Shown in pieces: positions 4,124-23,381 of a stretch of 24,586 nucleotides of DNA (its first letter is position 1; each line of letters begins with the position of its first letter). The stretch is from IMG/VR virus record IMGVR_UViG_2698536454_000001, positions 1 to 24,586 of that record; one strand, written 5' to 3'. The notes beneath the pieces were generated by a model. The model ran no database searches. It worked only from the letters and a program-made list of their open reading frames with translations, and was not told the origin of the DNA. This DNA comes from a virus (lineage: Duplodnaviria; Heunggongvirae; Uroviricota; Caudoviricetes). Both the position numbers and the translations under genes were made by a program.

Positions 4124-4200
4124 TGGCGTGGCATGCAGGATTCGAACCTGCGACCAACCGCTTAGAAGGCGGTTGGTCTGTCCGACTGAGCTAATGCCAC
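4124..4200 (-). tRNA. tRNA-Arg (anticodon UCU), argU-like, with one C-C mismatch in the D-stem
   Basis: Reverse complement folds as a 77-nt cloverleaf: 7-bp acceptor stem GTGGCAT/ATGCCAC, anticodon stem ACCGC/GCGGT with loop CTTCTAA, T-arm GCAGG-TTCGAAT-CCTGC, encoded G-CCA 3' end. D-stem GCTC/GACC has one mismatch. Confidence 0.85.
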
Positions 4201-4627
4201 AACGCTGAGAGCACTTAGCCTGTTAAGGCACCACACTTTGTCGCGGCTCCATAAATGCTCTCATCGTTGTACCCTCGTCTCTTCCGAGGCGTCACACCGA
4301 ATCGCCGGGATGGTGAATCCCCGTGCGCGGAATAAAACCGCTCGACTTGCACATTCCGGCTACCTGGTTCGTTTGCCCGAGCAAGGGAGGGTGCCCCTTA
4401 AACGTATCCAGACCGCTATCGGCGCATGTGCCATACGCCGTACTGCTCAAAATAAAAGCTCACTCCACCTGTTCAATTTAACGACAAGCCAGTCAGGTTA
4501 GTAACCGGAATGAGCTCTTTGGTTACCTGAAAGGTAATAATTTGTGCGTTAAATGTCAACTATCTACGATAAATAAATCATATGTGGTTAAATTGGTAAT
4601 AATTTAATTGCGTACGGAGTCATTGAT

Positions 4628-21179: not shown

Positions 21180-21719
21180 TTACCAAAACTTGTACCACGG
21201 GGATTTATCCTTCAATGGACAATCCTTCCATCGTGTGGCCAACCATTCATATTCTTTAAAATATGTGTTTATGTTTTCTTTTTCTCTAATGGCTTGTATA
21301 AGAGGTAGCGCAATCTGATAGTTATTTACAACGGAGCTGTAAAATACTTCCTTAATCATGGTCTCATCATAAGTTTTCCGCTTCACGCTCACAGCCATGC
21401 GTTCGTAGAAACCTAGACAGTAAATTATTTCTCTCTTCTCTGTCTTTTCTTCATCCGTAAGATCAGCCTGCCCATTGCTTGGATACATATAAGAGCGGAA
21501 TGATTTGTTCGATTCGTGAATGCGGCGCATAGTAGATAGGCCTTTCTTATAATCTACATCAAACCTGCTTTCACCAAGGAATACTGAAGTGTGTACTTTT
21601 CTCGCTGTATTTACATTATAAATAATAGTAGCGATAGCTATGAACAAGCCAAGCGAAACCGCGACTGCACTTACGATTTGAGCCACAGCCATGGCAAATT
21701 GCATTTCTTCACTTAACAC
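21180..21719 (-). CDS. membrane-anchored protein of unknown function (179 aa)
   Basis: GTG 21719 follows GGAGA (alternative ATG 21704). One N-terminal transmembrane helix (AMAVAQIVSAVAVSLGLFIAIATIIY), then a charged soluble domain; AT-rich. Confidence 0.6.
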   Translation of the reverse strand: MLSEEMQFAMAVAQIVSAVAVSLGLFIAIATIIYNVNTARKVHTSVFLGESRFDVDYKKGLSTMRRIHESNKSFRSYMYPSNGQADLTDEEKTEKREIIYCLGFYERMAVSVKRKTYDETMIKEVFYSSVVNNYQIALPLIQAIREKENINTYFKEYEWLATRWKDCPLKDKSPWYKFW

Positions 21720-21758: not shown

Positions 21759-21894
21759 GTCATTAAACTATCCGAATGTTAAACGCCTTCGTACTCGTCA
21801 AATTTTCTCATGTGGGCTCCTCCTGTATCGGTGCCTAATCGCTATGGATCACCCGTGAGGTAATAGTACGCTATTCACCTGCAATCTGTACAGA

Positions 21895-21928: not shown

Positions 21929-22615
21929 TCAGAAGAACCCTGCCTTGTCATTGATGTACTCTGCGTGAGTCTGGATATCACGCAGGCATTTGCTCACACC
22001 GACGATGTAGCAGAACATGGTGGTCAGTTCCGCCGCTGCGCCCGATACGTCGTGCCCGTCGTCCTGTAACTGGTTCAGCAGATTCATCAGCAGTGAGTTC
22101 TCCGTCAGGCCGAGAACACCAGACGGCGAGTGAATCAGGCTGCGGTAGCCGGGCTTCAGTGGGGCACTGTAGGTTTTGTTCTCTATCTTCATCGCCTGCA
22201 TTACTGCTGACGCCGTGGCGTTGGCTACCTGGTCGGCAACCATCTTTATGCGTTCTTCCTGCGGGAGCGAGTTTTTAATGTAACTTCCGGTGCGGCGGAT
22301 CTGAGGAAGAACCTCACCTGTAACCCATTTACGAAAGCGGTAGGGGATAGTGCCTGGTGTCACCGCATCGCGGCAGCGGAGGATCAGTGTGTAGAGGCCT
22401 GACTCGTTGATAATATTGGTTTCGCCTTGACGGCCTAAGTTAAATTTAGCCCTTTCATCATCATCAAGAGATTTTATTGACATAGTGGGGTTTGTCAGTT
22501 GAAGAGCTTTAATAACGTCTTTGGCAACAAACCAAGGATTTCCATCAATAACAATGGCTCGAATGGTTGCTTCTGATTCAAAATGAAAAACAGATGGGGT
22601 TACGTTAGCAGTCAT
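21929..22615 (-). CDS. Bro-N domain antirepressor (Ant-like), 228 aa
   Basis: Track ORF 21929..22768; ATG 22615 follows AAAGGTGA. N-terminal Bro-N signature (FHFESEATIRAIVIDGNPWFVAKDVIKAL). C-terminal 85 aa homologous to the product of 22929..23186. Confidence 0.75.
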   Translation of the reverse strand: MTANVTPSVFHFESEATIRAIVIDGNPWFVAKDVIKALQLTNPTMSIKSLDDDERAKFNLGRQGETNIINESGLYTLILRCRDAVTPGTIPYRFRKWVTGEVLPQIRRTGSYIKNSLPQEERIKMVADQVANATASAVMQAMKIENKTYSAPLKPGYRSLIHSPSGVLGLTENSLLMNLLNQLQDDGHDVSGAAAELTTMFCYIVGVSKCLRDIQTHAEYINDKAGFF

Positions 22616-22768
22616 AGTGATCACCTTTGTAGTTAGGTTAATCACCACTACCGACGCCAATCGGTTGGTGGTGAACTGTGCAGGGTTGGCGTAACCGGCT
22701 ACAAAGGACCCGGCGCACCTTTCGGTGCCCCCACACAGCCCACCATAGAATAGGTGCGCTTTACACAT

Positions 22769-22788
22769 AAAAAAAACCGCTTATGCGG
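22769..22788 (-). terminator. strong intrinsic terminator between the small LexA-controlled gene and ant
   Basis: CCGC-auaa-GCGG hairpin followed by eight U on the minus strand, with an adjacent GGCA-cata-TGCC hairpin. Confidence 0.7.
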
Positions 22789-22928
22789 CATATGTGCCTC
22801 TGTAGTAACCCGGGACGCCAATCCCGGCACTAGATTTTGCCAGTGCCCGACTACTATGGCACAAGAGGAGTGCGATGTAAATTTACCGCAAAGGTAAATA
22901 TAAGCACTCCACTTGGTAATTGCAAACC

Positions 22929-23186
22929 TTATCTGGTTTGTTTTCGTAATTGTTCGGCACAATAGTCGAGATGTGTTTGCAGATCCTGCATAGACATCTG
23001 TGAGCTGGTGACGTAGTTAATCAGTGCAGTCAGTTCGGCAAGTGGGCCATCGACATTAAATCCATCCTTATCGAGATCCCGGAGTAATTTCATCAAGTGC
23101 GATCTCTCCACCAGTGACCTGACGCCTCCCGGCGTGTGAATCCTTTCGGTAAATCCGTCTTCCAGTGGATAGTGATACTGCTGCAT
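22929..23186 (-). CDS. small antirepressor-like protein (85 aa), LexA-box-preceded
   Basis: Track ORF 22929..23204 begins at TTG; ATG 23186 follows GGAGAA. Aligns with the Ant C-terminal domain (IH-P-GV, LM-LL, DG-V-G-AELT, D-QTH-Y). Confidence 0.65.
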   Translation of the reverse strand: MQQYHYPLEDGFTERIHTPGGVRSLVERSHLMKLLRDLDKDGFNVDGPLAELTALINYVTSSQMSMQDLQTHLDYCAEQLRKQTR

Positions 23187-23205: not shown

Positions 23206-23225
23206 AACTGTATATTTATACAGTA
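23206..23225. promoter_or_regulatory. LexA (SOS) box
   Basis: AACTGTATATTTATACAGTA matches the consensus TACTGTATATATATACAGTA at 18 of 20 positions, including both CTGT/ACAG arms; about 20 nt upstream of the minus-strand ATG 23186. Confidence 0.75.
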
Positions 23226-23381
23226 TCAAATAATTTGTTTGCTATCCAGCACGTTTTGCAAATCACCTGAAAGGTAATATCTATTCGTATTTATGGGTTG
23301 TCTATCCATATGTGGTTTTTCGGGTAATAGAATAACCGGATATGCGGCGCAACGGGTGCTGCGACTATCTGGAGAATTAAC

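Follow-up and report, generated by a model that had tools for sequence, protein, structure and literature searches.

Two catalogued phage RNA genes, isrK and C4, as a likely immI-type control module for a prophage antirepressor

The DNA directly upstream of the antirepressor gene ant in a 24,586-nucleotide E. coli prophage stretch from IMG/VR (the window hereafter, meaning this whole stretch) consists of two already catalogued phage RNA genes, isrK and a C4 RNA of the P1 type, and is an ordinary, previously described antirepressor control module. We consider it likely that these two known RNA genes together make up an immI-type RNA control module for the prophage antirepressor, a reading to which the present analysis contributes the family memberships, the covariation of the RNA structure, the co-variation of loops and targets and the layout of the elements. 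A sequence-only reading of the same DNA had proposed that ant is controlled by RNA through a single cis-acting leader toggling between a 5-bp and a 7-bp pairing; control at the RNA level is retained here, but the single toggling leader gives way to two RNA genes.

Results

Identity and layout of the RNA genes

With gathering thresholds applied, an Rfam scan of the entire window yielded three matches, namely a tRNA-Arg elsewhere in the window, isrK and C4. The isrK small RNA gene (22770-22846, minus strand), which encodes the RNA bearing the a1 and b1 elements, was matched end to end by RF01394 (model positions 1-77 of 77) with 72.3 bits against a gathering threshold of 50. The C4 antisense RNA (22664-22750, minus strand) was matched by RF01695 over model positions 1-87 of 87 with 79.5 bits against a threshold of 45 (E 2e-14). 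The two genes, both with E-values of about 1e-14, lie back to back on the minus strand. A permissive scan additionally recovered the family c4-a1b1 (RF03163, "a1, b1 targets of C4 antisense RNA") at 22859-22807 with 39.2 bits (E 3e-8), a score below the gathering threshold of 46.7 that does not confer membership of that family; the match overlaps the first two isrK hairpins, and the same stretch is claimed by isrK.

Read along the minus strand, the stop codon of an 85-aa gene is followed by a hairpin-forming stretch, a promoter-like site and then two hairpins with an intrinsic terminator, after which come a 19-nt spacer, a long GC-rich structure, a leader of about 50 nt and the ATG (22615) of the BRO-N gene. 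The spacer (22751-22769, minus strand), which would form the 5' leader of the C4 precursor, contains a non-conserved GCGCACC at 22759-22753. Folding z-scores relative to dinucleotide shuffles were -3.9 for 22768-22600 and -4.9 for 22846-22600; the structure of the leader region is more than chance.

Structure and covariation of the C4 RNA

The C4 fold, with an energy of -45 kcal/mol, comprises a 17-bp outer stem enclosing hairpin 1 (GCACC-GAAA-GGUGC, 22728-22715) and hairpin 2 (22714-22694). Homologous loci were collected with a structural pattern derived from the invariant C4 positions, which retrieved at least 120 stretches from IMG/VR, and were supplemented with loci found via the Ant protein. 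Since the search pattern anchors the C4 helices, pairs could be counted directly, and across 97 distinct sequences the 14 variable outer-stem pairs were canonical in 87-99% of cases, with up to six pair types each, while the five hairpin-1 pairs were canonical in 97-100%. Many compensatory changes are therefore carried by the outer stem and hairpin 1 in these 97 sequences, in keeping with the structure that defines RF01695. The hairpin-1 tetraloop was GAAA in 39 sequences, UUCG in 26 and GCAA in 13, together accounting for 78 of the 97.

Just outside the C4 stem, a conserved 5' U|GG and an unpaired 3' A-CC-A/C tail were observed. The 5' GG and the tail agree with the tRNA-like signature to be expected of a C4 that is processed by RNase P, as has been reported in P1 and P7, and if the processing site is carried over from these phages, the mature C4 would extend over approximately 22744-22666 (about 79 nt), from 5' GGU to 3' ACCA.

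Complementarity between C4 loops and their targets

Following P1 usage (PMC5320573), b' designates here the element that pairs with the site adjacent to the ribosome binding site, the GenBank records of the APSE phages carrying the opposite labels. On the minus strand, the hairpin-2 loop of C4 holds b' (CCUUUGUAG, 22699-22707), which complements b2 and b1, and its single-stranded joint holds a' (ACGCCAA, 22686-22692), which complements a2 and a1. The corresponding target sites lie in the ant leader, on the same strand, where a2 (UUGGCGU, 22654-22660) is the upstream site and b2 (CUACAAAGG, 22624-22632) overlaps the ant Shine-Dalgarno AAGGUGA, 8 nt before the ATG. Nine Watson-Crick pairs are available between b' and b2 and seven between a' and a2. 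Within IsrK, again on the minus strand, a1 (UUGGCGU, 22815-22821) occupies the loop of hairpin 2 and has the same sequence as a2, whereas b1 (CUACAGAGG, 22797-22805), located in the linker, mimics b2 with one base different, which places a G.U pair opposite b'. The arrangement expected of an RF01695 member is thus present, with a' and b' facing a2 and b2, b2 lying over the ribosome binding site, and a1/b1 copies located upstream.

The motif TTGGCGT-N(5-35)-CTACARAGG occurs exactly three times in the 24.6 kb, with none expected by chance: at 22821-22797 (minus strand) in IsrK, at 22660-22624 (minus strand) in the ant leader, and at 22686-22707 on the plus strand, where the sequence complements the loop regions of C4. 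No further targets of C4 were found within the window, the motif being confined to a1b1, a2b2 and C4 itself.

Co-variation of loops and targets was assessed in a comparative set of 135 distinct C4 loci, representing 88 combinations of hairpin-2 loop and joint sequence, by taking the longest exact complement of each locus's b' or a' in its own flanks and in the flanks of loci with a different loop. Against the downstream flank, b' reached 7.91 nt in its own locus and 4.42 nt in cross comparisons (7 nt or longer in 85% and 4%, respectively), and a' reached 6.8 and 4.6 nt (93% and 6%). Against the upstream flank, a' gave 6.83 nt for own and 4.82 nt for cross comparisons (90% and 7% at 7 nt or longer), and b' gave 6.6 and 4.7 nt (54% and 4%), this b1 match being weaker than the other three sets. 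The fit of each C4 to the flanks of its own locus is far better than to those of other loci.

The order of the elements is likewise fixed. The a2 element comes before b2 in 116 of 116 loci, usually at a distance of 20-25 nt, and a1 lies ahead of b1 in 90 of 92. In most loci the start codon is found 7-12 nt beyond b2, the distance classes of -1 to -5 being spurious, as the start-codon picker sometimes chose a GTG inside the Shine-Dalgarno. A terminator with a perfect stem lies between b1 and C4 in at least 87 of the 135 loci, an undercount because the detector requires perfect stems and misses even the G.U-closed stem of the window itself.

The isrK gene, its promoter and the upstream repeats

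IsrK begins with two hairpins at its 5' end, followed by a single-stranded linker and then an intrinsic terminator (22769-22789, minus strand; GCCGC-AUAA-GCGGU followed by U7, with the stem at 22789-22776 and the U-run at 22775-22769). The terminator that the sequence-only reading had placed upstream of the leader is present, and it is that of IsrK. A promoter scan predicted the isrK promoter at 22853-22881 (minus strand), with a -35 TTTACA (22881-22876), a 17-nt spacer and a -10 CATAGT (22858-22853) preceded by TG, and found no sigma-70-like site in 22616-22768 on either strand, in agreement with the earlier failure to see one there. By homology to IsrK of Gifsy-1, transcription would be initiated near G22846, corresponding to position 1 of the isrK model, so that the promoter-like site and the intrinsic terminator would delimit an RNA of about 77 nt, as expected for isrK.

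Upstream of the promoter, the nested repeats described earlier were confirmed on the minus strand: the arms GGAGTGC (22910-22904) and GCACTCC (22873-22867) of an outer inverted repeat (22867-22910), which forms a hairpin, enclose the inner palindrome TTTACC-TTTGC-GGTAAA (22882-22898; arms TTTACC at 22898-22893 and GGTAAA at 22887-22882). The nested repeat does fold, with a z-score of -2.5 for 22935-22847. The stretch 22790-22928 in which these repeats were reported had been taken as the 3' UTR of the small gene; the repeats are indeed there, but most of the stretch is the isrK promoter and the isrK gene.

The inner palindrome abuts the -35, is one copy of a repeated TTACC-N5-GGTAA motif and is, from its sequence, a candidate protein-binding site, while the 3' arm of the outer repeat falls in the spacer of the isrK promoter. 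In an alignment of 26 distinct upstream regions, the inner palindrome, the -35 TTTACA, the -10 CATAGT and the sequence through IsrK were conserved even where the upstream gene changed, at least four unrelated genes being represented there. The 5' arm GGAGTGC is missing where the upstream gene differs, being found only in the window's own clade together with the window's own upstream gene, and the outer repeat was rejected as a conserved element. The alignment thus points to a mosaic joint, at which only the inner of the two palindromes appears to travel with the isrK module.

Predicted folds of the leader and the read-through RNA

The minimum free energy fold of 22846-22600 pairs a1b1 with a'b' (-103.4 kcal/mol). 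With a 3' end only 4 nt longer, a modular fold with independent IsrK, C4 and leader becomes the minimum (-105.6 kcal/mol), and the two states of the read-through RNA are therefore predicted to be near-isoenergetic. Alternative conformers of the kind described for Gifsy-1, in one of which the middle of IsrK would pair with the downstream RNA, are thus predicted for the window. When the ant leader was folded alone, the 5' part of b2 was predicted to lie in a hairpin loop. The ant ribosome binding site also sits in a predicted local hairpin (-22.5 kcal/mol), which could contribute to repression independently of C4. When C4 was run in RNAcofold together with either the leader or IsrK, the loop pairings, including b':b2, were absent from the output, a result that says nothing on the loops because kissing interactions of structured RNAs are outside the reach of the method.

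Two antirepressor genes and an SOS box

The ant gene (21929-22615, minus strand) encodes a 228-aa BRO-N protein (Pfam Bro-N, 5e-20; PHROG anti-repressor families), of which the C-terminal domain, residues 147-223, matches PDB 5D50 chain E, the SPC32H antirepressor, at 1.9e-13. The upstream 85-aa gene (22929-23186, minus strand) encodes a close homologue of the same SPC32H Ant (5D50_E, 5e-47), an 86-aa protein of a Salmonella phage that was crystallised with its repressor (PDB 5D50), and shares 77.9% nucleotide identity with the ant of SPC32N. From the SPC32H-Ant homology, together with the 40% identity over 78 residues between the 228-aa and 85-aa proteins, it follows that the locus carries two antirepressors with one common domain.

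A near-consensus LexA (SOS) box, CTGTATATTTATACAG, is located at 23208-23223, just upstream of the 85-aa antirepressor gene. The ant of SPC32H is reportedly under LexA control. Probably, the 85-aa antirepressor is SOS-controlled at the level of transcription and ant is RNA-controlled at the level of translation. No intrinsic terminator was found between the 85-aa gene and isrK, and SOS-induced transcripts could for this reason add copies of a1 and b1.

Prophage context and distribution

The window is prophage DNA that encodes a small terminase and a T7-type portal, and its relatives include phiV10, TL-2011b and the O157 typing phages. The region is 99% identical to many E. coli chromosomes and deposited phages, and at least 80% of it is present in 279 genomes. 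The isrK-C4 pair is also present in Stx phages, SfV, phiP27, the APSE phages and the P1-like phage D6, as well as in many genomes of Enterobacterales, Aeromonas, Xanthomonas and Thalassospira. Across the family, C4 is followed by different genes, ranging from BRO-N-type products and Rha- or ORF6N-like N-termini (as judged by eye) to small ORFs of 60-80 aa. In RefSeq, near-identical E. coli prophages list the locus only as "hypothetical protein" and "BRO-N domain-containing protein". A 279-aa ORF starting at ATG 22768 traverses C4 and could mislead gene callers.

Discussion

Relation to known systems

In P1 and P7, processing of the immI operon transcript releases C4, whose loops pair with a2 and b2, whereby b' occludes a ribosome binding site and the antirepressor is not synthesised (PMC5320573; PMC8198154). 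The c4 work in these phages is that of Citron & Schuster 1990, as summarised in PMC5320573 and PMC8198154, and the processing of C4 by RNase P is that of Hartmann et al. 1995, as summarised in PMC5320573. The window resembles P1/P7 in the full-length covariance match, the same three-helix fold, the co-transcription of C4 with its target, the complementarity of a'/b' to a2/b2 with b2 over the ribosome binding site, the upstream a1/b1, the antirepressor product, and a 5' GG with an ACCA-like 3' tail that fit an RNase P substrate. It differs from P1/P7 in that the ribosome binding site of the antirepressor is targeted directly, with b2 placed 8 nt before the BRO-N gene ATG and no icd-like small ORF between C4 and ant as in the P1/P7 immI, where translation of icd is what C4 targets directly; in that a terminator separates a1b1 from C4; in its antirepressor, which is of the BRO-N/SPC32H-Ant type and unlike Ant1/2 of P1; and in its host element, an integrated epsilon15/phiV10-like podovirus prophage rather than a plasmid prophage.

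The Gifsy-1 prophage provides the second comparison. There the isrK promoter drives transcription of anrP, the read-through RNA is translationally silent, and providing IsrK in trans increases the translation of anrP about 140-fold and leads to prophage induction (PMC4825925). In the published model, IsrK opens orf45's ribosome binding site, and ant is translated by coupling (PMC4825925). The IsrK mutations G28A and G31A with the partner mutations C162U and C159U define a long-range helix, and processing yields an RNA of about 80 nt, STnc1160, from the sequence downstream of IsrK (PMC4825925). The order of promoter, IsrK, leaky terminator, structured RNA of about 85 nt and promoterless antirepressor gene is the same in the window, as are the alternative folds pairing the middle of IsrK with the downstream RNA, which are predicted here and were shown experimentally there as conformers A and B of the read-through RNA (PMC4825925). 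A difference, as far as Gifsy-1 can be compared from its published description, is that the window has no convincing equivalent of orf45; the Gifsy-1 orf45 is located inside what Rfam calls C4. The long-range helix of Gifsy-1 is probably a1:a', because positions 28 and 31 sum with 162 and 159 to 190 and fall at a1 and a' in the Rfam models, and STnc1160 is probably a C4 homologue. The Gifsy-1 paper (PMC4825925) cites no P1 c4 work, mentioning neither Citron nor phage P1, and does not draw the link between STnc1160 and C4.

The APSE phages of Hamiltonella (GenBank LR794146; PMC7313666) have the identical arrangement of isrK, C4 and BRO-N gene, and their authors pointed out matches of C4 a'/b' in the non-coding stretch preceding the BRO-N gene (PMC7313666). 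They differ from the window in their loop sequences, in a nucleotide identity of about 70% and in the reversal of the GenBank a'/b' labels relative to the P1 convention. In the P1-like phage D6, the order is isrK-C4-icd-antirepressor, with the icd that the window does not have.

Proposed mechanism

The processing, the translational block and the role of IsrK in the module that we propose are taken over from P1/P7 and Gifsy-1. The promoter at 22881-22853 would fire with a transcript start at about 22846, and most transcripts would end at the terminator (22789-22769) to give the 77-nt IsrK RNA, while some would continue through into C4 and ant. Transcription of ant by such read-through from the isrK promoter is suggested because ant is without a promoter of its own, and it fits Gifsy-1. 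C4 would then be excised from the read-through transcript, by analogy with P1/P7, with RNase P acting at the conserved GG on account of the tRNA-like stem and ACCA tail. Pairing of C4 b' with b2, at the ant Shine-Dalgarno, and of a' with a2 would block ribosome binding; no antirepressor would be made, so the prophage repressor would remain active. The a1 and b1 elements of IsrK, as imperfect copies of the target, would compete for C4 a' and b' and thereby tune Ant translation, acting either in cis, as part of the read-through transcript, or in trans, as the short IsrK, and the loop sequences would act as the determinants of specificity, that is, of immunity. If C4 acts in this manner, a change of b2 from CUACAAAGG to CUAGAAAGG, which keeps the Shine-Dalgarno, would de-repress ant.

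This model, in which C4 represses and IsrK modulates, is favoured because of the P1/P7 and Gifsy-1 results and the near-isoenergetic folds of the window. Against a decoy role of IsrK towards C4, it has to be considered that the published Gifsy-1 model is a different one, with orf45's ribosome binding site opened and ant translation coupled to it. Mutations made in cis in a1 of Gifsy-1 also raised basal translation, which a pure decoy model does not obviously predict.

The mechanism could be taken over strictly from Gifsy-1, in which case the read-through RNA would be the mRNA of a small ORF overlapping C4, whose ribosome binding site the short IsrK opens in trans, ant would be translated by coupling and C4 as a separate antisense repressor would not be key. 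Such a mechanism has experimental support in the closest studied homologue (PMC4825925), and comparable alternative folds are predicted for the window's read-through RNA, in which a 32-aa GTG ORF (22736-22638) does traverse C4. However, this ORF has no clear Shine-Dalgarno and its stop codon lies upstream of b2, 22 nt short of the ant ATG, and no AUG-started ORF that could be coupled like orf45 was found in the window. Of 85 distinct loci, only 23 have an ATG ORF, 25 aa or longer, beginning in C4 and ending near the downstream start, whereas the RNA structure and the complementarity of b' to the Shine-Dalgarno are near-universal. We hold the strict Gifsy-1 mechanism to be unlikely for the window, and less likely than the C4 model. 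An orf45-like coding region was likewise set aside as unsupported.

The toggle put forward in the sequence-only reading, where GGUGCGC pairs either locally (5 bp closed by GAAA) or with a distal GCGCACC (7 bp) and so switches ant, starts from segments that do exist: GCGCACC at 22759-22753, GGCACC at 22729-22724, GGTGCGC at 22719-22713 and the ant ATG at 22615 were all recovered exactly or within one base. The folding and covariation analysis that had been named as its check divides the two pairings. The local hairpin is real and conserved, being the inner hairpin 1 of C4, which, like the outer stem, covaries in the 97 distinct homologues, but it sits inside the C4 fold of -45 kcal/mol. The distal helix, in contrast, is absent from all the predicted folds, and when the longest complement within the corresponding 30 nt upstream was compared with cross-locus controls in 99 distinct homologues, it measured 3.39 nt for own and 3.20 nt for cross comparisons. 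The full 7 bp are reached only in the window's own clade, within which a near-identical relative (L018) has already lost a pair, and we regard the toggle as very improbable. Even less credence is given to a regulator of the P22 type. The sar RNA of P22 immI is an antisense RNA transcribed from the strand opposite its target, and it represses antirepressor translation at the ribosome binding site. Its counterpart here would be a cis-antisense RNA read from the plus strand across the ant start, for which the resemblance is one of function only, an antirepressor whose translation would be blocked by RNA pairing at the ribosome binding site; the window's regulator lies in tandem on the same strand and would act through short loop complementarity. 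No plus-strand promoter-like site near 22560-22700, no suitably placed plus-strand terminator and no plus-strand Rfam match were found, and a sar-like RNA was rejected. The comparison with P22 drawn earlier is better replaced by c4 of the P1/P7 immI and IsrK of Gifsy-1.

An extension of the C4 model, namely that IsrK is an anti-antisense decoy for C4 and that the module is wired to the SOS response, is put forward tentatively, as something that we would sooner doubt than assume. Were it true, DNA damage would generate extra a1/b1 transcripts that titrate C4 and switch on the second antirepressor, which would be a BRO-N fusion with the same repressor-binding domain as the first, and "orf45"/STnc1160 of Gifsy-1 would be a C4 RNA and not a coding region.

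Significance

As a discovery, the module amounts to little, given that both RNAs are Rfam families, the mechanism comes from P1/P7 and Gifsy-1, and the layout has been annotated in APSE. What it may offer is a link between two literatures, in that IsrK bears the a1/b1 of C4, and STnc1160/"orf45" of Gifsy-1 stands at the position of C4. The 88 loop/target combinations among the loci analysed would moreover point to a large and fast-diversifying set of immunity specificities in the prophages of Proteobacteria, which may be of use in immunity typing.

Antirepressor genes at the isrK-C4-ant locus

The 85-aa gene situated directly upstream of isrK (window 22929-23186, minus strand) encodes a product that matches the Ant antirepressor from Salmonella phage SPC32H, which has been crystallised (PDB 5D50_E), at an E-value of 5e-47, and a near-consensus LexA box, CTGTATATTTATACAG (23208-23223), lies a short distance upstream of it. 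This gene probably codes for an antirepressor under SOS control. In the BRO-N 'Ant' (21929-22615, minus strand), the C-terminal domain (residues 147-223) is 40% identical to this small upstream antirepressor (E 1e-15) and also matches 5D50_E (E 2e-13); it is a paralogue of the smaller protein. The locus therefore holds two antirepressors which have one domain in common and differ in their controls, the common domain being the probable repressor-binding unit.

A 279-aa open reading frame (21929-22768, minus strand) opens at an ATG at 22768, directly 3' of the IsrK U-run, and runs in frame across C4 into ant. This ATG lacks a Shine-Dalgarno sequence, the RefSeq start for ant is the ATG at 22615, and the longer frame is likely a gene-caller trap. 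A second promoter-like site, TTGCAA-17-TATATT (22897-22926, minus strand), is found directly 3' of the stop codon of the 85-aa gene, within clade-specific sequence that precedes the conserved promoter module of isrK.

Repeated palindrome and other genes

The palindrome (ACT)ATTACC-N5-GGT(A/G)A was matched 21 times in the window at two mismatches or fewer, against 6.8 expected, and all copies with zero or one mismatch occupy intergenic, promoter-like positions. Two tandem copies (1363-1377 and 1381-1395) stand 5' of the small-terminase ATG and one precedes the portal region (4523-4537); one further copy each lies upstream of the LexA-box promoter (23263-23277), next to the isrK -35 element (22883-22897) and 3' of the ant stop codon (21849-21863). 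The repeat may serve a single phage DNA-binding protein as its operator or activator site.

The prophage also carries a tRNA-Arg gene (anticodon TCT; 4124-4200, minus strand), with the terminase region on one side and the portal region on the other. Downstream of ant, a DUF4760 protein gene (21180-21719, minus strand; E 8e-31) is located in a stretch unlike the nearest E. coli relative, and may be a cargo gene or a moron.

C4 and isrK in other phages

Some viral contigs, such as L133 (9728-11089) and L106 (4694-5402), contain two or three tandem C4 copies at a spacing of about 656 bp, with loop sequences that differ from copy to copy. Each copy is followed by a gene of about 120 aa from one family (187 aa for the second in L106), whose N-terminus resembles Rha when judged by eye; these arrangements look like immunity-module arrays.

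In the P1-like phage D6 (L288, 2492-2702), an isrK match exceeding the gathering score (59.1 bits) is followed immediately by C4 (76 bits), then by icd and an antirepressor gene. This locates IsrK-type RNAs within a classical immI operon.
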